This document shows, in pieces, positions 2,594 to 41,644 of a stretch of 64,000 nt of DNA; the stretch's first letter is position 1; each line of letters starts with the position of its first letter. The DNA comes from Escherichia coli. GTDB taxonomy: Bacteria; Pseudomonadota; Gammaproteobacteria; Enterobacterales; Enterobacteriaceae. The notes under the pieces were generated by a model that ran no database searches, was not told the origin of the DNA, and saw nothing but the letters and a program-made list of their open reading frames with translations. The stretch lies in NCBI RefSeq assembly GCF_003991155.1, contig NZ_CP031297.1, one strand, 5' to 3'. The position numbers and the translations under genes are program-made.

Positions 2594-3705
2594 TCAGAAC
2601 CACAGGCCTCTCGGCCAAATGCGCCACCAGGGAGAACCCACTTCTGCCCCTCCGGCACAAAAATCGGGAGCGTGTAATCCTCTCTGGATACCTGCTCCAA
2701 TGCCTCAACATCACTAATCTGTATCGGCGCAACAGCAGAACCTAAATCTATTACGTCGATTTTTTTTCTTGATACCGTCACACCAAAGGTTTGTTCATAC
2801 TGAGCAATCTTCCCAGCTCGTTCAGGCCAGTAGTGACGGATAGTGGACCAGATACGCTGTGAGTTGTAGATGCAGGTCATACACGAAGACCGGCTCCAAC
2901 CAAGGCGATAAGGGACTGGGGCCAGAATGCGGTGACGCTCGATTACTTCCCATACCTCTTCCTCAGTCCAATGAAGAACGGGCCTCCAGGCATCAACTAA
3001 CCGTGCAGTCTTCCCATATCTTCTGTCACAGGCATGAGCCTCAAGCTGGTTGTACTTGGATCTGTTTGCACTTTCCTCCCGGCGCTCACCAGTGATGAAA
3101 AGGATCTTCTTCCCCTTGAAGCGCTCCTGGTTATTAAGAGCTCTGCGGCCAACATCGATCTTCAAGGCTGATGAACACCACCTTGTTTGGAGTGATGGCG
3201 ATTGCTGAGGGAAACGAAGGCGTGTACCAGGCTTAGAGCGCTTATGGTCTCTAGGCAGCACCAGAAGCCCCTCAGGCGTCTCTACACGATGGGGGTGGCT
3301 ATAGGCATTGTCTTTGAGCATTTCGCCCTCAAAGCCGCCCTCAAGCCACGAGAAGTACATTGGGACACCCAGTTCTTCCCCGAGCTGACGACAGTAATCA
3401 CGCATGAAGGCCCAATCCATCAACGAACTACCTTCCTGACCATCAACATCATGGTGCCAGAACTCCACCTTTGACTTATCAACACCCATGTCCACCAGCC
3501 GCAAGTACGCAGCAATCGAGTCCTTGCCTCCAGACAGGCAAACAATGATGTGGTCGTACAAACTCAAGTCCACATCCGGCGCTGAGAAGTACGTTGTTCT
3601 ATCGTCACAACGCTGACTGGAAGATATACCGGTAAGAACCGACTCCAGTGATGGCAACACCACCTGGTCATCGAACAAATCTCCTTGGTTTTCTCGTCTC
3701 AACAT
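2590..3705 (-). CDS. PAPS reductase-family / PP-loop ATP pyrophosphatase-like protein
   Basis: 371 aa; PP-loop motif SGGKDS near N-terminus, ~120-aa C-terminal extension. Confidence 0.75.
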   Translation of the reverse strand: MLRRENQGDLFDDQVVLPSLESVLTGISSSQRCDDRTTYFSAPDVDLSLYDHIIVCLSGGKDSIAAYLRLVDMGVDKSKVEFWHHDVDGQEGSSLMDWAFMRDYCRQLGEELGVPMYFSWLEGGFEGEMLKDNAYSHPHRVETPEGLLVLPRDHKRSKPGTRLRFPQQSPSLQTRWCSSALKIDVGRRALNNQERFKGKKILFITGERREESANRSKYNQLEAHACDRRYGKTARLVDAWRPVLHWTEEEVWEVIERHRILAPVPYRLGWSRSSCMTCIYNSQRIWSTIRHYWPERAGKIAQYEQTFGVTVSRKKIDVIDLGSAVAPIQISDVEALEQVSREDYTLPIFVPEGQKWVLPGGAFGREACGSD

Positions 3706-3742
3706 AAGTCGCTCTTTTTTCTTTACTGGGTTGTTTTTATGA

Positions 3743-3772
3743 TTTACAGTATTATAAAATGATGCTGTGAAA
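3743..3772. promoter_or_regulatory. 28-bp palindrome family copy (TTTACAGTATTATAAAATGATGCTGTGAAA)
   Basis: Imperfect inverted repeat in divergent intergenic region; family recurs ~9x. Confidence 0.5.
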
Positions 3773-3935
3773 AGTAAAGTTTTCAGAACGACCAGTCACT
3801 CAGGAGAACTTGATAAGCACCAGAAAGCAATCTAAAGGTGGTTTTTCGGTGAGGTTAGTTCAGGGGCAACCTGTCTTGCTGATTGAAAATCATCAAGAAG
3901 TGGTTTTTTGGTGTGGTTACGGTTTGAGGGGGTGA

Positions 3936-28498: not shown

Positions 28499-28954
28499 AT
28501 GCCCATGAATTTAAGTATTATCGCAAGAGTCTTGCGCCAATTGGCAATTATTTTTGTCCTCTCCGTGCTTCTTGTGGCCGGATATATCTACTATGCCGGT
28601 AAACAACATCAGCAGGCAGCAATCAACTTTTGGGGTGAGCAATACCAGCCTGATGCCATCTCGACGCAAATTGATTGGGGGTTTATCGGTAATTGGGTTA
28701 TTCCTCGCGGGGGGCCAATTATTTCTCCGGGCATTGCTGGAGTGTGTCCCAATACACCACTTCCCGTTGTGCCTCTTAAAACTGGTCCTGATGGCCGGGG
28801 TTATGTTCTCTGTGGCATTGGAAGTGAGGCTGTCGCTACCAGCTTTGATGTCAATGACATCCAGGATGAAGAGATACGAAACACATTAAAAACGATGTTT
28901 GAGGAAGAATTTGAAAAAACTGTTAAGGGGGATAAATGGACACTCAAGAACTGA
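28499..28954 (+). CDS. hypothetical membrane protein
   Basis: 151 aa, N-terminal TM helix. Confidence 0.4.
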   Translation: MPMNLSIIARVLRQLAIIFVLSVLLVAGYIYYAGKQHQQAAINFWGEQYQPDAISTQIDWGFIGNWVIPRGGPIISPGIAGVCPNTPLPVVPLKTGPDGRGYVLCGIGSEAVATSFDVNDIQDEEIRNTLKTMFEEEFEKTVKGDKWTLKN

Positions 28955-29414: not shown

Positions 29415-30206
29415 GTGGGTATGGCAAAAGTAATCAGCTTCGCCAACCAGAAAGGCGGAGTGGGTAAGAGTACCCTCTGTATCCAGCAGGCCTTTTATCT
29501 GGCGTTACAGAAGAAAAAGAAAGTGCTGGTCTTGGATATGGATGGTCAGGGGAACACGTCCTCTCGACTGGCCCCCAGACGAGAGCTTGAGGATGGTGAC
29601 TACGAGCCCATCCTCACTGGAACCAAAACCGCAGAGCTGTTCGCTTACGAGCTGGACGGCATTGAGGTCATGCACTGCCCTTGCGGTGCAGACCTCATTC
29701 ATACGCCGAAGAATGACCCGGATCTGTTTGAGATGGAGGCTGTGCCTCTTGACCAAGCCATGAATCCGGCTCGCCATTTGGCTGAGCTGTTTGAGAACTA
29801 CGACTACGTGCTGATTGATTGTCCGCCTAGCCTCGGCAGAAAGCTGGTGGCAGCGTTGGTGATGTCTACCCATGTGGCATGTCCGGTAAAGCTCTCTGGC
29901 TTCGCTGTGGACGGCGTAGAAGGTCTCCTGAACACGATTATTGGTGTGCGCGAGGCATACAACCAAAATTTGGAGATCCTGGGCATCGTGATCAACGACA
30001 TGGACCGCTCTGTCAATCACGACAAAGCCCTCAAGTCGCTGGAGAACACAGTTCCGGATCTGCTGTTTGAGAACAAAATTATGCACCGGCCTCCGCTCGA
30101 TACGGCGACGACTGATGGCATCCCTGTCTGGGAGCTTCGCTATGGACATGTCGCGGCCAAAGAGGTTGAGGCGGTGTTGGAAGAACTATTAGAGAAGGTG
30201 GGCTAA
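29415..30206 (+). CDS. parA: ParA partition ATPase (Soj/MinD superfamily)
   Basis: 263 aa; deviant Walker A FANQKGGVGKSTL. Confidence 0.9.
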   Translation: MGMAKVISFANQKGGVGKSTLCIQQAFYLALQKKKKVLVLDMDGQGNTSSRLAPRRELEDGDYEPILTGTKTAELFAYELDGIEVMHCPCGADLIHTPKNDPDLFEMEAVPLDQAMNPARHLAELFENYDYVLIDCPPSLGRKLVAALVMSTHVACPVKLSGFAVDGVEGLLNTIIGVREAYNQNLEILGIVINDMDRSVNHDKALKSLENTVPDLLFENKIMHRPPLDTATTDGIPVWELRYGHVAAKEVEAVLEELLEKVG

Positions 30207-30209
30207 GCG

Positions 30210-31391
30210 ATGGCATTGAACAATTTAAAAGGCCTGTCCGAACTTGCTAAAGCCGCCAAAGGCAAGAAAGGCAAAGAGGTTCTTACCGTACCTGTTGACG
30301 ACGTTGTATCCAAGGTCCAGGTTCGTAAGCGCTTCCGTAACATTGAAGAGCTGGCGGCAACCTTGCTGACCGAAGGGCAGCAATCTCCGATCATCGTGTT
30401 CCCGAAGAATGAAGAAGGCAAGTTCGTCATCCAAAAAGGGGAGCGGCGTTGGAGAGCGTGTAAACACGCTGGTATCGAGACCATTGACCTGGTGGTGAAT
30501 GATAAGGTCCAGAACAATTTGGACGAGACTGCTGGTGAGCTGATCGAAAACATCCAGCGGGATGACTTGACTCCGGTAGAGATTGCCGAGGCGTTAAACC
30601 TGTTTATTGAAGAAGGTTGGAAGCAAAAGGATATTGCTGATCGGCTCGGTAAGAATATCACTTTCGTATCTACGCATCTGTCGTTGCTCAAGCTACCTGA
30701 CTGTGTGCGTGAGTTATACGATAATGAAGTATGTTCTGATACAGAGACCTTGAATAACCTTCGTCTCTTGTTCGATCTGAATGAAGAAAGATGTCGCGCC
30801 GTCTGCGCGGTGGCTATGTCTGACGGGATTACTCGTAAACAAAGCCGTGAGCTGCTGAATGATGCCAAACGTATCAAAGACGAAATGGAAAAAGGCCCAC
30901 TGACTGGCTCCCACCAGAATGATGAGCTTGGCGCTGGCAACACCGACGAGCAATCCCTCAACTCGGGTGGGGATGGTACGTCGGAACAAACCGGGAATGA
31001 CGACCTGAACCTTGCCCAGGAGGAACTGGAAGGGGGTAAAAATTCCAATGGTCAGGACGATGATGACGAAGACCCTTTGCGTGATGAAGAGGGTGAGCAC
31101 AAAGATCCTGTCAAGCAGCCAGATAACAGCGGCAAGGACAAAGATGAAGAAGGCGGTGATGCTCTTCCTCCTCTGCCGAAGGACAAGGAATGGAAGAACG
31201 TCCGGGCTGACAGTTTGATTTTTGCTGTCAACGTTAACCTGGATGGCGAGACCAAACGTGGAGTCATCATGACCGACCGTGTTGCTCTGGTTCCGTCTAC
31301 TGTCTGGGTTAAAACGCTCGATGGCGAAGGCAAGGAAAAGCATGTTCATGTGCCTGTGTCAGACATTGAACTCCTGAGTGTCGAAGGCTAA
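30210..31391 (+). CDS. parB: ParB partition protein with acidic C-terminal extension
   Basis: 393 aa; ParB motif KGERRWRA, HTH; immediately downstream of parA. Confidence 0.85.
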   Translation: MALNNLKGLSELAKAAKGKKGKEVLTVPVDDVVSKVQVRKRFRNIEELAATLLTEGQQSPIIVFPKNEEGKFVIQKGERRWRACKHAGIETIDLVVNDKVQNNLDETAGELIENIQRDDLTPVEIAEALNLFIEEGWKQKDIADRLGKNITFVSTHLSLLKLPDCVRELYDNEVCSDTETLNNLRLLFDLNEERCRAVCAVAMSDGITRKQSRELLNDAKRIKDEMEKGPLTGSHQNDELGAGNTDEQSLNSGGDGTSEQTGNDDLNLAQEELEGGKNSNGQDDDDEDPLRDEEGEHKDPVKQPDNSGKDKDEEGGDALPPLPKDKEWKNVRADSLIFAVNVNLDGETKRGVIMTDRVALVPSTVWVKTLDGEGKEKHVHVPVSDIELLSVEG

Positions 31392-31433
31392 TAAAGGAGG
31401 CCCAGCCAAAGAGGTTGGGCCTGTCAAGAACAG

Positions 31434-31712
31434 GTGAATATGAAGATCTCACAGGACATGAAAAGAAAATTTGCTTTGGTGAATGCCCTGTCTAAAACGG
31501 AGAAGCCAAGTCTCCAAGACCTTCACAAGGCAACAAATATTCCTGAATCAACGATCAAGAGACAGTTGTCTGCCCTGCGTGATGAGTTCGGAATGAATAT
31601 CTTGTTCGTCAGGGAGTCTACCGGCGAACGAGGTGCCACCGGCTACTACATGCTGACAGACTGGGGGATCTTAGACAGGTCTTCGTTCTTGAACCGGTAC
31701 GGAAAACTGTAA
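31434..31712 (+). CDS. small protein, possible winged-helix regulator
   Basis: 92 aa; PSLQDLHKATNIPESTIKRQLSALRD. Confidence 0.4.
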   Translation: MNMKISQDMKRKFALVNALSKTEKPSLQDLHKATNIPESTIKRQLSALRDEFGMNILFVRESTGERGATGYYMLTDWGILDRSSFLNRYGKL

Positions 31713-32433: not shown

Positions 32434-32704
32434 GAGGTAGAAACGAAGAACCCCGCCGAAGCGAGGTTCTTTGCTTTCCTGCCTGATCGCCTTAATGCCG
32501 AAGCAAAGACGTCTTGATAAAGTCGGGGCAACCGGACATTTCCCGGTCGATGAAGTCCTGACGTTTCGCCAGCGGCCATTTCATGAACGCCGCGAGCGGG
32601 ATGCGCTTATTCGTGTTAGTATTGCCTTGCAGCATAACAAAGCTCCTTAATTGCTTGATTGTGTTGTAAGGGCTGCAACGAAGGTCGAAGAGCGATGCGG
32701 CCCT

Positions 32705-32740
32705 TATTTATGATTATTACAGCATCATAAAATAATATCA
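32705..32740. promoter_or_regulatory. 28-bp palindrome family copy (TTACAGCATCATAAAATAAT core)
   Basis: Divergent intergenic region 32434..32952. Confidence 0.45.
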
Positions 32741-32770
32741 AGAGACAATAAAACGATACCAAGAAACAAA

Positions 32771-32788
32771 ACTTTCACATGTGAAAGT
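32771..32788. promoter_or_regulatory. parS-like 18-bp perfect palindrome ACTTTCACATGTGAAAGT
   Basis: Exact; divergent intergenic region. Confidence 0.6.
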
Positions 32789-32847
32789 CTCCCCGCTGTC
32801 CACCTCGCACACTCCAAACGCCCAAACGCCCAAATAACTTGTCTATC

Positions 32848-32862
32848 TGCCCAAAATGGGCG
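32848..32862. promoter_or_regulatory. TGCCCAAAATGGGCG motif
   Basis: Identical to copy at 18227. Confidence 0.4.
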
Positions 32863-32921
32863 CGTAAGCGTCCGATAGAAAGTAATTGTTAGTGAGATAT
32901 TGACTACACGGAATATGGCTA

Positions 32922-32952
32922 TATCATAGAATCATAAAATGATGCTGTAAAA
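32922..32952. promoter_or_regulatory. 28-bp palindrome family copy (ATCATAGAATCATAAAATGATGCTGTAAAAG)
   Basis: Immediately upstream of ORF 32953. Confidence 0.5.
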
Positions 32953-33339
32953 GTGATATGTATGCCAAAGCAAGCAAATCATCTCCGTTTGAAGAAACCT
33001 TGCGCCAACTGTCCATTCCGGAAGGAGGGCGCTATCGAGCTGGCCCCTGGGCGATTAGAAGGCATCATCAACGACATCGTTGAAAACGACATGACGACGT
33101 TTCATTGCCACAAGACCGTGCACTCAAAGTCAGGTGGTGAATGGGATGAAGAGGGTAACTATGCACCTTCGGGACAAGAGTCGATGTGTGCCGGTGCTGC
33201 GGCTTACTTGATGAAAATAGGCAGGCCGACAGTGGCTATGCGAATTGCCTTTGCGTTTGGTGATGCAAAGGTGTCCGACTGGGACGAAGCTCAAGAGCTG
33301 GTTGTCGAGCCTTTGGTACAAGGGGACCGAAATGAGTAA
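32953..33339 (+). CDS. Cys-rich hypothetical protein
   Basis: 128 aa; CANCPF ... CH. Confidence 0.4.
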   Translation: MICMPKQANHLRLKKPCANCPFRKEGAIELAPGRLEGIINDIVENDMTTFHCHKTVHSKSGGEWDEEGNYAPSGQESMCAGAAAYLMKIGRPTVAMRIAFAFGDAKVSDWDEAQELVVEPLVQGDRNE

Positions 33340-37018: not shown

Positions 37019-37674
37019 TGGCAGTCATTTACTACGGCGAGGGAACCCATGACGCCGGTTTCGTCGGGTTCCGTGTCGCACGAACAGTTGGGGTGGCGGA
37101 TGATTACCGGCAGGAATACTTCTCCTTGAGAGAGTATTCCTACGCAACAGCTCACCGGCTGGCCTACAGCTTGGACCGAAAGTGGGAAGCTGAGGCAGAA
37201 GAGGTGAAGCGTCAGAATAAGACTTGTAAGCGGCGACGCAACTCCGGGCCAAATATCATTGCTGAGGGGCTGAGGGCTTATATCAGTATCGAGAACCGGA
37301 GCCGGATGGGGGTGAAGAGAACCTACTTCGCACCTTGTTTTCTCGTCACAAAGCCAGGCTACGGCAATGGGGATATTGTTTTCAGGATTTCCACTCATGG
37401 CTACGCAGAAGCCTACGAAAAGGCGGTGGAAAAATATTGTGAGATCCATGATTTGACGGATGAGCAGTATGTTGAGTTGCTTGACCGTATGCCGAGTACA
37501 GAGGTGTTCACTGGATACCTGCTGAATGCTCTTTTAATACGCGGTCATCGCGCCACAAAAGCTGAAATACTGAGTAAGCTGGGGGCTGCGAAGAATGAAG
37601 ATGACATCACCAATAGCAAAGGGAAAAGCGGCCACAACAGAGTGCGTTGCCCAGAGTATCGGTGGGCGCAATAA
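37018..37674 (+). CDS. hypothetical protein
   Basis: 218-aa ORF, start overlaps previous stop. Confidence 0.4.
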   Translation: MAVIYYGEGTHDAGFVGFRVARTVGVADDYRQEYFSLREYSYATAHRLAYSLDRKWEAEAEEVKRQNKTCKRRRNSGPNIIAEGLRAYISIENRSRMGVKRTYFAPCFLVTKPGYGNGDIVFRISTHGYAEAYEKAVEKYCEIHDLTDEQYVELLDRMPSTEVFTGYLLNALLIRGHRATKAEILSKLGAAKNEDDITNSKGKSGHNRVRCPEYRWAQ

Positions 37675-37729
37675 CAGCGCCAGATGTTCAAACCATGTTT
37701 TATAGCAACACCTCTTTGGGGGCGGAATT

Positions 37730-38347
37730 ATGTTTTTTGATAACAAAGTAGAATCTCACTCGCTCGTAATGGGAGCCAGCGGGAAGGGCAAATCGGTCTT
37801 GTCCGAACAAGTGCGGAAAAACGCGAGGCTGCGCGGTGATCTGCTGGTGGATACTGAGATGTACCGTGAAGGTCGAGGGTTGAAACCATACGAGCATGAG
37901 TACGCTCGTCGCTTAGTTCTGGGGCTAAGTGGACCGTTGCCGCGTGAACTGCGTGGGAAGCCGGTGACGGTTATCTCTGATGTGTCCAGACCAAAAAAGG
38001 TAAAGCGTCAGCCAAAGCAATTTGTTAAGACCGTAAATGGCGTCACCCTTGAACGCCAATTGGTGGCAGATGCAAGAGACCAGTTGGAAATGCAAACAGG
38101 CGTCTGGCTCAAACAACCTCAGCTCATCGAGCTGATGGAAGAGTCGGGCATAGACGAAACTCTAGCCGATTTTGGTGAGGCTGAAACACAGATCCGAGAA
38201 ATGCTGGCGGATGCGTTGGCGATGAAACTGGTAGGGCGCTCATGGCCCAAGTGTGGAGCCCTCTATAACGCGGCAGAAAAGTCCGACGTTAACTTTTCCT
38301 CCGAGCTTGATGCTGCGGCAAAAGAAGCTGGATACATGGTTCGCTGA
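37730..38347 (+). CDS. hypothetical protein
   Basis: 205-aa ORF. Confidence 0.4.
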   Translation: MFFDNKVESHSLVMGASGKGKSVLSEQVRKNARLRGDLLVDTEMYREGRGLKPYEHEYARRLVLGLSGPLPRELRGKPVTVISDVSRPKKVKRQPKQFVKTVNGVTLERQLVADARDQLEMQTGVWLKQPQLIELMEESGIDETLADFGEAETQIREMLADALAMKLVGRSWPKCGALYNAAEKSDVNFSSELDAAAKEAGYMVR

Positions 38348-38554
38348 ATGGGATTTGGTGTGGACAAGATAGATCGGCAAAGTTGGCTCGTTAAATTCAG
38401 GCGAGCGAAGTGTCAGGACACTTTAGACACGATGCGGGATGCGGCCATTCGCAACTATGAAGGGAATATTCGTGTTATCGCGGATATTGTATTGGCCCAT
38501 GAGGCGAGAGAGACAGAAATTGAAAAAGGGATGTTTTGTCTAATAGTTAGATAG
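38348..38554 (+). CDS. small hypothetical protein
   Basis: 68-aa ORF contiguous with previous stop. Confidence 0.3.
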   Translation: MGFGVDKIDRQSWLVKFRRAKCQDTLDTMRDAAIRNYEGNIRVIADIVLAHEARETEIEKGMFCLIVR

Positions 38555-38558
38555 TCTG

Positions 38559-38858
38559 ATGAGCTATCAGGTGGTGATTATGAAAAAGAGAATACTTCAT
38601 CTGCCCGTAAAAAAGATTTACTTCGATCAGATCAAATCTGGAGAAAAACCAGATGAATATCGCCTCGTCACAGACTACTGGATAAAAAGACTAGAGGGGC
38701 GCGAGTATGATGAAGTCCATGTTAAGTGTGGCTACCCAAAGGCTGGAGATATGTCCAGGATAGAGATTCGTCCTTGGCGTGGCTTCTCAAGGAACGTCAT
38801 AACGCACCCGCACTTTGGAGATTATCCGGTTGAAGTATTCGCCATCCATGTGAATTGA
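38559..38858 (+). CDS. ASCH-domain-like protein
   Basis: 99 aa; GxKxxExR-type motif (SGEKPDEYR); AT-rich relative to surroundings. Confidence 0.45.
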   Translation: MSYQVVIMKKRILHLPVKKIYFDQIKSGEKPDEYRLVTDYWIKRLEGREYDEVHVKCGYPKAGDMSRIEIRPWRGFSRNVITHPHFGDYPVEVFAIHVN

Positions 38859-38921
38859 TTTTGGTATTCTGATTTAAAACTATTGTAGCTCAGGTATCAA
38901 AAGAACTTGGGTAATTAAAGA

Positions 38922-38950
38922 TAAGGGGCCGACGGCCCCTTAATTGTTTT
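38922..38950. terminator. bidirectional terminator-like hairpin
   Basis: AGGGGCC-GAC-GGCCCCT stem-loop between convergent genes. Confidence 0.5.
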
Positions 38951-39437
38951 AGTTTGTGAATATTGAACAATCGAGGTGGGATAGCGCTTGTTCGTAGCTA
39001 CCTTTGTTGTTCGTCTTACGCAGTGCCACCAGCTCAACAATCAATTGGCTTAAAGCCAGTGATTGAGGCTCCCAGACGCGCTTGCATTTGTCAGCCATGT
39101 TGGCATTTACGTCTGTAATGACGTAGAGGAAATCAGGGACGTCTTTCAAGGTCCCCAGGCCTTTTGCCATATCAACAGCCTCAGGGTTTTGATAGCTTCG
39201 AGTGGCGCTCAGGTCATCGTGGGAAATATAGCTGGCAGATGTCTCAGCGAAACCTAACACCATGCCTTTTCCTGCGCTTTTTGCAATGGCCGAGCCGATA
39301 GCTAGAGTTGGCATGATGGCCTGACCTATTTGGCGGGTAGATGCAGTTGCCAAGCCTGAGGCGATGTTCTTCCCGGCATCTTCGGCAGTGGCAGAGCTGG
39401 TTGTGAGCATCGCAGTTAAAATGATTTTTCCAAACAT
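38949..39437 (-). CDS. secreted hypothetical protein
   Basis: ~162 aa from ATG 39437 (RBS AGAGGA); signal peptide MFGKIILTAMLTTSSATA. Confidence 0.45.
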   Translation of the reverse strand: MFGKIILTAMLTTSSATAEDAGKNIASGLATASTRQIGQAIMPTLAIGSAIAKSAGKGMVLGFAETSASYISHDDLSATRSYQNPEAVDMAKGLGTLKDVPDFLYVITDVNANMADKCKRVWEPQSLALSQLIVELVALRKTNNKGSYEQALSHLDCSIFTN

Positions 39438-39451
39438 ACTTAATTCCTCTA

Positions 39452-41644
39452 TCAATCCATAAAGTCCGACTTTTTGAAGGGCATAGTGCCTTTGCAATCG
39501 GGATACGCTGTGCAGCCCCAGAACTTAGAGGCTCGTTTCTTGCCAGGGGCTTTTCCTTTCCTGAGACGCATCGGGCTACCGCAATCTGGGCAGTCTGGAC
39601 AATCCTCCGCCGCGATACGTTTCTCGGGTTTCCCTCGGTTGTCTGGGAACGTCTTCTTGCAAGCCTCGTTCTGGCAGCCCCAGAAAAAACCGTTCTTCCC
39701 TTTGATCCGGTGCATCTCTCCACCGCAGTTGAAGCATTCGTGTGAAGGAGGCTTCGCGCCCTCGAAGGCTTTAGCCATCGCGCCACCTTCTTTGGTCAGA
39801 ACCGGTGCGGCCACTTTGAGCTGCTCAACCATTTGGCAGATCCAGGTGGAAATCTGCTTCATGAAGACAGACATGTTCCCGGAGCCGGAGGCAACTTTCT
39901 CAAGCTCCTGCTCCCAAGCCGCAGTCATGCCGGGTGATTTGATGGCTGGTGGAAGCACTGCTATAAGCGCATGAGCCTTATCAGTTGCAAGCAGTACCTT
40001 TTTCTGACGCTTGAAGTAGCCTTTATCAACAGCGCCCTGGATGATGCTTGCGCGTGTTGCTGGAGTGCCTAAACCGGCTGTGTCTTTGAGGATTTGTTTG
40101 AACTTCTCCTCAGTCACGAACCGGGCAATGTTCTCCATCGCGGCAAGCAATGTGGCTTCGGTGAAGTGCGGTGCTGGCCGCGTCATTTTGTTTGCCAGCT
40201 CGGCCCCATTCAGCAAGGCAGGTTCGCCCTGGCTAACCCTGGGGAGCTTCTCTTGTTCAACCGGCGCGTCGGTGTCTTCCCCCTCGTCCTTGGGACTGCT
40301 TTCACTATCAGAAGCAAACAAAACCTTCCAGCCTTGTTTGGTAGGTGTCTTACCAGCGGACGCAAAGAGGTGACGCCCACACTGCACCTCGATGGAGGTT
40401 TTGGTGAACTCGAACTCGCTGTAGAACTGCGCGATGTAGAAACGACGGATGGCGTCGTAAAGATTGAACTCGATCTCAGACATGGCACTGATGTCTGTTC
40501 TGGCCGGTGTTGGAATGATCGCGTGGTGCGCGGTCACTTTGGCGTCATTGAATACCCTGGCCTTGCGATGAGGATCTGCGCCAGCCACCAGCCCAGAGAC
40601 GTTCTGATCGGACAAAATGAGCGCCTGGAGAATGTCCGGAATGTCTTCCTTTTGGCTCTCGGGTAGATAACGACTGTCAGTACGAGGGTAGGTGGTCGCT
40701 TTGTGCGTCTCGTACAGAGCTTGAGCTGCATCCAGTACCTGCTGAGCTGTGTATCCCCATCGTTTGCTCGCGTATTGTTGCAGCGACGTTAGATCGAAGG
40801 GGAGGGGGGCTGACTCTTTACCTGGTTTGGTTTCTGCTTTGCTGATAACAGCATTGGCACCATTGACCTGGGAGGCTACCTGCTCGGCATAGGCCTTATT
40901 GACGCACCGGCCTTGCTCGTCACTGCACTCTTCTGGTGGTATCCATTGGGCGGCAAACTGTCCATTCTGTACGGACACGTTCACACCCAGAGTCCAGTAT
41001 GGTGAGGGGGTGAAACCGGCGATCTCTCGGTCCCGTTGACAAACAAGAGCGACGGTTGGGGTGATAACCCTGCCAACGTGAAGAGTGTGGTTGAAGCCGA
41101 CATCTCGGGCCAGCACTGTGTAGAGGCGGCTCACGTTCATGCCTACCAACCAGTCAGCGCGTTGCCGTGCCAATGCGGCGTAGTAGAGTGAGACCGTATC
41201 CTTGCCATCCTTTACGTTGTTCAGCGCTTTCTTGATGCTTGACTCATCGAGAGCCGTCAAACAAACTCGGCGAATAGGGCCAGAGTAGCGGAATCGATCC
41301 AGAAGCGAACGGGCGATAGCCTCACCTTCTCGGTCGTAGTCCGTTGAGATGTAGATGGTGCTCGCCTTTTTGACCAGTCCCTCAACAATTTTGTACTGTT
41401 TGAACGCACTCTTGCGAACGTTGTACCGCCATGACTCTGGTGCAATAGGGAGGGTCTCCAGTGACCATGACTTGTAGCGTTCGTCATAATCGTCTGGCAT
41501 ATACAATTCCAGCAGGTGGCCGAACGCCCACGTAATAACGCGGTTTCCTCCATCATGGAGAAATCCATCACCTCGTTGGGAGGCCTTCATTACGCCAGCC
41601 AAATCTTTTGCCTGAGAAGGCTTCTCGCAGATATAAAGGTCCAT
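39452..41644 (-). CDS. topB: DNA topoisomerase III
   Basis: 730 aa; TOPRIM N-terminus MDLYICEKPSQAKD, type IA topoisomerase core, C-terminal Cys4 zinc ribbons. Confidence 0.9.
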   Translation of the reverse strand: MDLYICEKPSQAKDLAGVMKASQRGDGFLHDGGNRVITWAFGHLLELYMPDDYDERYKSWSLETLPIAPESWRYNVRKSAFKQYKIVEGLVKKASTIYISTDYDREGEAIARSLLDRFRYSGPIRRVCLTALDESSIKKALNNVKDGKDTVSLYYAALARQRADWLVGMNVSRLYTVLARDVGFNHTLHVGRVITPTVALVCQRDREIAGFTPSPYWTLGVNVSVQNGQFAAQWIPPEECSDEQGRCVNKAYAEQVASQVNGANAVISKAETKPGKESAPLPFDLTSLQQYASKRWGYTAQQVLDAAQALYETHKATTYPRTDSRYLPESQKEDIPDILQALILSDQNVSGLVAGADPHRKARVFNDAKVTAHHAIIPTPARTDISAMSEIEFNLYDAIRRFYIAQFYSEFEFTKTSIEVQCGRHLFASAGKTPTKQGWKVLFASDSESSPKDEGEDTDAPVEQEKLPRVSQGEPALLNGAELANKMTRPAPHFTEATLLAAMENIARFVTEEKFKQILKDTAGLGTPATRASIIQGAVDKGYFKRQKKVLLATDKAHALIAVLPPAIKSPGMTAAWEQELEKVASGSGNMSVFMKQISTWICQMVEQLKVAAPVLTKEGGAMAKAFEGAKPPSHECFNCGGEMHRIKGKNGFFWGCQNEACKKTFPDNRGKPEKRIAAEDCPDCPDCGSPMRLRKGKAPGKKRASKFWGCTAYPDCKGTMPFKKSDFMD

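Follow-up and report, generated by a model that had tools for sequence, protein, structure and literature searches.

The window, the 64,000-nucleotide stretch of Escherichia coli DNA analysed here (NZ_CP031297.1), is the backbone of an IncC type-1 plasmid, and the locus of interest lies where two of its gene arrays converge. A rightward array of tightly packed or overlapping backbone genes, whose later members are dcm, orf218, orf205 and orf68 (a 68-aa ORF, 38348 to 38554, plus strand), closes with a gene for a 92-aa protein of the PHROG 625 family with a predicted ASCH fold (38580 to 38858, plus strand). Beyond its stop codon lie an AT-rich variable spacer (38859 to 38921) and a hairpin (38922 to 38942) at which gene orientation flips, and there the rightward array meets a leftward one made up of orf162 (162 aa, with a signal-peptide-like N-terminus; 38949 to 39437, minus strand) and topB, which encodes DNA topoisomerase III (39452 to 41644, minus strand).

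The locus is not new to sequencing: the gene has been sequenced and annotated before as a backbone gene of a well-known plasmid group, and its sequence is identical to that in hundreds of deposited IncC plasmids. A megablast search of PLSDB with positions 37700 to 39500 returned 966 plasmid records, 535 of them at 99% identity or higher; the matching records are typed IncC, MOBH and MPF_F and come from Klebsiella, Salmonella, Escherichia, Providencia, Vibrio and other genera. Over positions 1 to 50000 the window differs from NZ_CP114330.1 at 8 positions, with coincident coordinates. A second allele at about 93.9% identity accounts for 394 records, pTC2 among them, and has an additional 462 bases between window positions 37682 and 37683. 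We take these to be the known small segment that separates type-2 from type-1 IncC backbones, and because the window does not have them we assign it to type 1. Pfam and NCBIfam scans of the ASCH-like protein and four of its neighbours gave nothing usable. In pKHM-1 and Vibrio rumoiensis plasmid 1, where orf68 is unannotated, its product is nonetheless 84% conserved at the amino acid level with a dN/dS of 0.13; it has no match in Pfam, PHROG or NCBIfam, is confined to the IncA/C clade and never accompanies the ASCH gene elsewhere. As for orf162, which is hypervariable among IncA/C plasmids, we considered it as an exclusion factor and rejected this, as the published surface-exclusion gene sfx sits elsewhere, between traN and acaB (PMC11493245).

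The original prediction had described a 99-aa ASCH-like protein. An open reading frame of that length does exist (38559 to 38858), but the true product is probably the 92-aa protein that starts at the internal ATG at 38580. We favor this start because each of the 53 homologues in the alignment starts where Met8 of the 99-aa reading lies, because RefSeq places the start at the same ATG on this and related plasmids (38580 to 38858), because a Shine-Dalgarno-like AGGTGG (38569 to 38574) stands 5 nt upstream of it, and because the seven-codon extension (38559 to 38579, plus strand), itself probably untranslated, is not conserved in relatives, with the region from 38510 to 38598 only 58% identical. 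The GxKxxExR-type signature that had been predicted is present as GEKPDEYR, an ASCH octapeptide of the 'GKER' type at residues 21 to 28 (38640 to 38663, plus strand). In the AlphaFold2 model it follows a predicted helix (residues 12 to 20) and leads into a strand (25 to 29). Among 53 diverse homologues, with a mean column identity of 54%, G21 is at least 90% conserved and the other motif residues K23, E26 and R28 are invariant, as are W34, R37, G51, Y52, P53, D57, W66, G68, H76 and F79.

A bidirectional hairpin had also been predicted at the point where orientation flips, before topB; the hairpin is confirmed, but orf162 intervenes between it and topB. It has a 9-bp stem with 6 G-C pairs and a 3-nt loop (TAAGGGGCC-GAC-GGCCCCTTA), lies 64 nt after the ASCH stop codon and 7 nt after that of orf162, and folds with an energy of -15.8 kcal/mol (z = -3.55), a value that none of 200 shuffled sequences matched. 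A terminator pattern scores it on both strands, with modest T-tracts (5 T in 8), and it resembles an intrinsic terminator. pTC2, pKHM-1 and the V. rumoiensis plasmid all keep its core, GGGGCC-N3/4-GGCCCC, while the loop varies. Taken together these features suggest that the hairpin would terminate transcription in both directions.

What drew attention to the locus was its base composition, and here the prediction of an AT-rich segment held: GC content is 42.1% over positions 38559 to 38950, whereas the window averages 51.4% (z = -3.2, computed on 392-nt windows with a standard deviation of 2.8 to 2.9%), and only 0.44% of windows of the same size are as low. The segment is one of four such islets in the 64 kb, the others lying at 1711 to 2264, 3534 to 3927 and 32571 to 33095. 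Its predicted borders were slightly too narrow, as a maximal-scoring segment computation extends the tract to about 38453 to 38971, with 40.7% GC, so that it takes in the 3' half of orf68. With 44.1% GC, the ASCH coding sequence (38580 to 38858) is the lowest of the 72 RefSeq-annotated coding sequences in positions 1 to 50000 (mean 51.4, standard deviation 2.2), and orf68, at 44.9%, is the second lowest in those first 50 kb. GC3 is 0.46 in each of the two genes against a mean of 0.58. The 90-nt stretch between the ASCH and orf162 stop codons (38859 to 38948) is lower still at 36.7%, but intergenic DNA in the window ranges from 30 to 53%, and the AT-richness of the spacer appears to be ordinary intergenic composition. 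Because both genes are lowest in GC and low in GC3 while the spacer is ordinary for intergenic DNA, the dip is mainly a property of the two coding sequences.

The original prediction read this shift as a recent small insertion and named the lack of a significant GC difference as what would count against it. The GC difference is real, but a real compositional shift does not show recency. The GC content of the ASCH gene is 43 to 44% in every IncA/C-clade lineage, and the anomaly therefore predates the divergence of these lineages. If a foreign AT-rich ASCH cassette had landed lately at the convergent junction before topB, one might expect to find relatives with an empty site, and among the plasmid records searched there were none. 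Instead, orf205, on the left flank, is found in 990 PLSDB records, and the ASCH gene occupies the same place at 80% amino acid identity or higher in about 979 of them. IncC type 1, IncC type 2, pKHM-1 and V. rumoiensis plasmid 1 share the gene order orf205-orf68-ASCH ... orf162-topB, with the same 232 nt from orf205 to the ASCH gene in all four lineages. The protein is 97.8% identical in IncC type 2 and 86 to 87% identical in pKHM-1 and the V. rumoiensis plasmid (about 85% at the DNA level), its dS to relatives is at least that of the flanking genes, and its dN/dS of 0.05 to 0.10 indicates strong purifying selection. Around the tract there are no flanking terminal repeats or target duplications beyond chance, and no integrase, transposase or recombinase gene flanks the ASCH gene. 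A 16-nt direct pair with 81% identity that brackets the tract (38319 to 38334 and 38898 to 38913) was considered as an insertion scar and rejected as chance, because its 8-nt exact core is expected several times per 800 nt and because both copies differ in type 2. Although no gene of the first 50 kb has a stronger GC dip, the family spreads promiscuously through mobile elements and the junction does collect insertion sequences in other IncC plasmids (IS256, IS26 and ISVsa5) and extra genes in relatives, the low-GC tract also spans orf68, which is specific to the clade, and we regard a recent insertion as very improbable. Throughout the IncA/C clade the ASCH gene is a conserved resident that selection maintains although it is dispensable.

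Why, then, has a long-resident gene remained so poor in GC? The protein does not itself force low GC, because a homologue on a Pseudomonas megaplasmid has 56% GC, like its host element. A second comparison is with pVPS43, a MOBH, MPF_F plasmid of Vibrio with 43% GC, whose homologue has 44% GC and directly follows parA, korB and an HTH gene. The IncC counterparts of parA-korB-HTH lie at 29421 to 31712, and the ASCH proteins of the two plasmids share 70% of their amino acids, compared with 77, 57 and 76% for parA, korB and HTH, respectively. This pattern appears to fit long residence of an ancestral gene at least as well as acquisition, and it suggests that the 6.9 kb of methylase-rich genes now separating the HTH gene from the ASCH gene may be a later addition. 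We infer that the low GC of orf68 and the ASCH gene reflects an old acquisition from, or the retention of, a Vibrionaceae-type plasmid background of about 43 to 44% GC, with little amelioration since. IncC parA, at 54% GC, complicates the simplest version of retention: with the ASCH gene still at 44%, uniform amelioration and simple vertical inheritance do not together explain the contrast between the two. One could propose that orf68 and the ASCH gene, or the ASCH gene alone, were acquired or replaced as alleles from an element of that Vibrionaceae type before the clade diverged, and may have been refreshed by homologous recombination without amelioration. Both the agreement between the clade GC and that of pVPS43 and its homologue and the GC3 deficit relative to the backbone speak for such an event, as do the freedom of the Pseudomonas homologue to match its own element and the recombination breakpoints inside or beside the gene. 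But outside the clade no homologue is closer than about 70% identity, so that no donor can be named, the ASCH gene has diverged from its pVPS43 counterpart as far as parA, korB and HTH have, which fits vertical descent equally, and orf68 does not travel with the ASCH gene elsewhere. We consider this ancient acquisition or replacement possible but unlikely.

It could also be that the AT-richness is itself functional, kept by selection as a target for a nucleoid protein such as an H-NS-like repressor or as a regulatory or terminator zone. Proteins of the H-NS family prefer AT-rich DNA, and Acr2, which is presumably H-NS-like, would be a natural candidate. This protein is encoded by IncC plasmids and is a transcriptional repressor of conjugative transfer (PMC11493245). 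Low GC is stable here across lineages that have otherwise diverged, and the tract sits at an operon end with a promoter-like site (38520 to 38547) and a predicted terminator. However, that site is the 1 promoter-like match found where 2.2 are expected in shuffled sequence, the tract is mostly coding with synonymous sites that have diverged freely (dS of about 1 across the clade), and Rfam finds no structured RNA, with only sub-threshold chance matches over 37500 to 39600. We therefore think it improbable that function explains the composition.

Residence has not meant stability of the surroundings. The junction appears to be NEVERTHELESS unstable, and the stretch from the 3' half of the ASCH gene to orf162 looks like a mosaic that is prone to insertion. 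IncC types 1 and 2 differ by 1 to 2% over most of the region, but by 10 to 15% from about 38790 to about 39400, a stretch that takes in the final 70 nt of the ASCH gene, orf162 and, between them, a spacer that indels have rearranged. Similarly, pKHM-1 and the V. rumoiensis plasmid show virtually no difference as far as about 38680, in the middle of the gene, after which identity falls to 82% and then to 55%. Between the ASCH stop codon and the hairpin, these two relatives each carry one extra plus-strand gene, a different one in each case: the product in pKHM-1 is an unknown protein of 255 aa, and that in the V. rumoiensis plasmid, of 343 aa, matches Toprim weakly. Other IncC plasmids bear insertion sequences at this junction: ISVsa5 (IS10) lies within the ASCH gene at 38720 to 38728, with a 9-bp duplication, in 8 or more complete plasmids that span five genera; IS26 is found at 38835, and IS26 truncates the gene in p15E434; IS256 is found at 38941 to 38948 and IS1203 at 39461 to 39465. 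It would seem that relatives have swapped alleles here, acquired or shed a gene, and accumulated IS elements. Because the ASCH gene is interrupted in those complete plasmids and truncated in p15E434, it is dispensable for natural maintenance and spread, while selection normally keeps it.

Outside the IncA/C clade, the family is widespread on mobile elements. A profile search found 3010 clusters at 50% identity with E <= 1e-3, of which 659 have E <= 1e-10, and homologues that are 57 to 70% identical occur in Vibrio, Shewanella, Burkholderia, Ralstonia, Cupriavidus, roseobacters and metagenomes. By tblastn there are 338 phage records, including Stx-converting and lambdoid phages, phage 21, Salmonella phages of about 42 kb and the Ralstonia phage RSA1, and the plasmid carriers include IncA/C plasmids, pVPS43-like Vibrio plasmids and Pseudomonas megaplasmids. 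The surroundings vary: in an E. coli phage-plasmid the homologue sits beside ead/Ea22-like and DUF551 genes, in a contig resembling a plasmid or integrative element it comes after parA and an integrase in a run of small ORFs, in a temperate phage it is near the integrase, and in a P2-like prophage it directly precedes the GPA replication gene. Across these contexts no partner gene is conserved, and what the settings mostly have in common is an array of early or accessory genes on a mobile element. Fusions are rare, with one joining a Dam-type D12 methyltransferase to the domain and another joining a phrog_1423 fragment to it; most longer proteins that contain the domain have no partner domain that can be recognised, and some of them may be artefacts of gene calling. 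There are hints, no more, of a link to DNA methylation, with dcm in the same array as the IncC gene, the Dam-type methyltransferase in one fusion, and PUA-like domains elsewhere that read modified bases; a further hint, towards restriction, is a remote relative in BFVD named 'restriction alleviation protein'. A placement of the gene in the leading region, with a role in anti-defence, was also considered. In IncA/C plasmids oriT is found upstream of mobI (PMC5587640), and because it could not be placed beside the ASCH locus we dropped the argument. Nothing specific to the family, and no experiment, was found in the literature searched on plasmids and on anti-defence work.

By its predicted structure, the 92-aa protein belongs, as a divergent member, to the ASCH/PUA-like superfamily, and its octapeptide is of the 'GKER' type. 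We assign it because of fold and motif together, as the sequence score is below the Pfam threshold. The AlphaFold2 model (pLDDT 95, pTM 0.83) is a single-domain PUA-like beta-barrel with flanking helices, and two independent methods, one of them Foldseek, both find its closest matches of solved structure among ASCH proteins. The best Foldseek matches among solved structures were 1xne, 5guq/5y6c (ZmASCH), 3iuw, 2z0t, 9kyh (YqfB) and 2dp9; the first ten have probabilities of 0.96 to 0.99, but E-values of only 0.04 to 0.3 and TM-scores of 0.5 to 0.63. In BFVD, beyond close family members, remote matches are named DUF3850, ASCH and activating signal cointegrator. The family lies at the edge of what sequence profiles detect. 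Weak Pfam matches to ASCH occur in 16 of 53 family members (best E = 0.006) and to DUF3850 in 9 of 53, while the protein itself has no match in Pfam at E <= 1 and likewise none in NCBIfam, does not reach the Pfam ASCH gathering score, and at E <= 10 has as its sole Pfam match a spurious Ribosomal_L2_C. The precomputed Pfam field was empty for all homologues listed. PHROG 625, whose function is unknown, matches at E = 1.8e-31, with residues 4 to 92 aligned to profile positions 2 to 90 of 98. A search with the family profile against PDB sequences found no solved structure, only a spurious ribosomal L15 match, and hhalign of the family against YqfB aligned just the motif (14 columns, E = 0.3, not significant). 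Existing GenBank and RefSeq labels read hypothetical, 'ASCH domain-containing protein' or 'RNA-binding protein'.

What might such a protein do? It is plausible that a base of a nucleic acid, or a nucleoside, is bound in the pocket that the Lys-Glu(-Arg) octapeptide forms. YqfB hydrolyses N4-acetylcytidine (ac4C) via Lys21, Thr24 and Glu74, with Arg26 forming the oxyanion hole (PMC6972931). A recent bioRxiv preprint reports that 19 ASCH proteins, the GKER type included, strip ac4C from tRNA, and that in TthASCH Lys23 and Glu26 are essential while Tyr14, Arg28 and Tyr81 contribute (10.64898/2026.02.27.708502). By analogy with the GKER-type proteins that act on tRNA ac4C, the ASCH-like protein may hydrolyse an N4-acyl-type group. 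The same preprint finds that ZmASCH and TRIP4, both of the GKER type, do not hydrolyse free ac4C (10.64898/2026.02.27.708502), and because they leave it uncleaved the motif does not fix the activity. Transfer of function to our protein is weak for that reason, and because the equivalence of residues rests on motif and numbering. An N4-acyl or nucleoside-binding mechanism is thus a tentative proposal that we think somewhat more apt to fail than to hold. Were it right, the target could be host RNA or DNA, or that of an incoming element, and acting on it would aid the establishment of the mobile element. It is tempting to go further and imagine the PHROG-625 mini-ASCH protein as an entry enzyme of mobile elements that erases an N4-acyl or related cytosine mark from host tRNA or from DNA, or as one that reads or covers modified bases against restriction, although we regard so specific a role as a long shot.

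Taking the evidence as a whole, the locus is likely best explained by a long-resident backbone gene for an ASCH-fold protein at the end of its array, followed by a hairpin at a convergent junction, whose product may bind or hydrolyse a nucleic acid or nucleoside. For the reading of plasmid sequences more generally, a dip in composition does not by itself point reliably to recency, since here the lowest-GC gene of the first 50 kb turns out to be a constant resident of its clade. The mini-ASCH family to which it belongs is very large, strongly conserved, and shared by clinically important resistance plasmids and Stx phages, and if the ac4C-eraser activity reported for other ASCH proteins extends to it, mobile elements would be manipulating their hosts in a new way.

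How does the locus compare with systems that are already known? The hairpin has what bidirectional Rho-independent terminators have, namely a G+C-rich perfect palindrome between A-rich and T-rich runs, with a stem and a T-tract on both strands, but the T-tracts of the predicted hairpin are short and interrupted. The DUF3850/ASCH proteins of phages, in the PUA clan, are likewise small phage-borne PUA-like domains; PHROG 625 is nevertheless a separate cluster, much more conserved, whose scores to those families are below threshold. ZmASCH from Zymomonas mobilis (PDB 5GUQ) shares the GKER octapeptide and gives the best Foldseek TM-score (0.63, probability 0.99), but it is a longer protein of about 145 aa with extra elements, and it is 11% identical to ours; it has been reported as an ssRNA nuclease, an activity that should not be assumed here. 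E. coli YqfB (1TE7 / 9KYF) is an N4-acetylcytidine amidohydrolase with Thr24 as its nucleophile (the GKTR type) and is a chromosomal housekeeping gene, whereas our family rides on mobile elements and has an invariant Glu26 in place of the Thr/Ser nucleophile (GK[T/S]R) that YqfB-type enzymes combine with Glu74, His70 and Tyr89. The nearest likeness may be to TthASCH from Thermus thermophilus (TTHA0113, PDB 2DP9) and the Enterococcus faecalis 'activating signal cointegrator' (PDB 3IUW), both of them structural matches, which share the same small single-domain beta-barrel/alpha build and carry the octapeptide G-x-K-x-x-E-x-R early in the chain, as does the 92-aa protein. The residues important in TthASCH, Tyr14, Lys23, Glu26 and Arg28, would correspond, by motif and numbering only, to Y14, K23, E26 and R28 here, and these four are conserved or invariant throughout the family.

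The placement of parA-korB-HTH relative to the ASCH gene differs between IncC plasmids and the more distant Vibrio plasmid pVPS43. In pVPS43 (L004 2598-5273), parA-korB-HTH is followed directly by the ASCH homologue, whereas in IncC the same three genes (window 29421-31712) lie 6.9 kb upstream of the ASCH gene, separated from it by an opposite-strand N6-methylase, small ORFs, a thymidylate-kinase-like gene and dcm. The comparison hints that the addition was the block between the HTH gene and ASCH, and not the ASCH gene itself. The gene orf205 (window 37730-38347, plus strand) is restricted to the IncA/C clade, and several GenBank records name it a 'phage head-tail adapter protein'. It carries a Walker-A-like GASGKGKS close to its N-terminus, its FtsK/AAA matches are only weak, and a PHROG search returned nothing, so that the name is probably an annotation artefact. 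In type-2 IncC plasmids, pTC2 among them, 462 additional bases with two small ORFs lie at window 37682|37683 (L002 2522-2983); we take them to be the known small segment that separates type-2 from type-1 IncC. The window lacks this segment and is therefore of the type-1 backbone. The window has four other low-GC patches. Three of them, at 1711-2264, 3534-3927 and 32571-33095, are largely intergenic or divergent-promoter regions; the fourth is the CDS at 28505-28954, whose GC3 (0.42) is the lowest in the first 50 kb.

Downstream of the ASCH gene, divergent plasmids of the IncA/C clade carry one additional gene between its stop codon and the conserved hairpin. In Vibrio rumoiensis plasmid 1 this gene (L003 7230-8261) encodes a 343-aa protein with a weak, below-cut-off match to Toprim (E = 3.6e-4), and in pKHM-1 (L007 5398-6165) a 255-aa protein for which a family search gave no match. 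Other IncC plasmids carry insertion sequences here: ISVsa5/IS10 at window 38720-38728, interrupting the ASCH gene in at least eight complete plasmids; IS26 at 38835 in p15E434, where it truncates the last ASCH codons and adjoins the anti-phage gene ppl; IS256 at 38941-38948, on the edge of the hairpin; and IS1203 at 39461-39465, in the 3' end of topB. Adjoining topB is a minus-strand 162-aa ORF (window 38949-39437) with a signal-peptide-like N-terminus and no match in a family search. No other gene in the neighbourhood varies nearly as much: its amino acid identity is 81% between IncC types 1 and 2 (97-99.5% for the flanking genes), and the versions in pKHM-1 and the V. rumoiensis plasmid are 84% and 46% identical to it, with a dN/dS of 0.3-0.4.

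Multidomain relatives of the PHROG-625 domain, to whose family the ASCH protein belongs, are rare. The profile search yielded two fusion proteins (P0266 and P0188): in one relative the domain is joined to a Dam-type D12 N6-adenine methyltransferase, and in another to a fragment matching phrog_1423, a 'reverse transcriptase' family profile. A third relative, BFVD A0A8S5UN54, is a 168-aa viral protein with 27% identity that is named 'restriction alleviation protein'.
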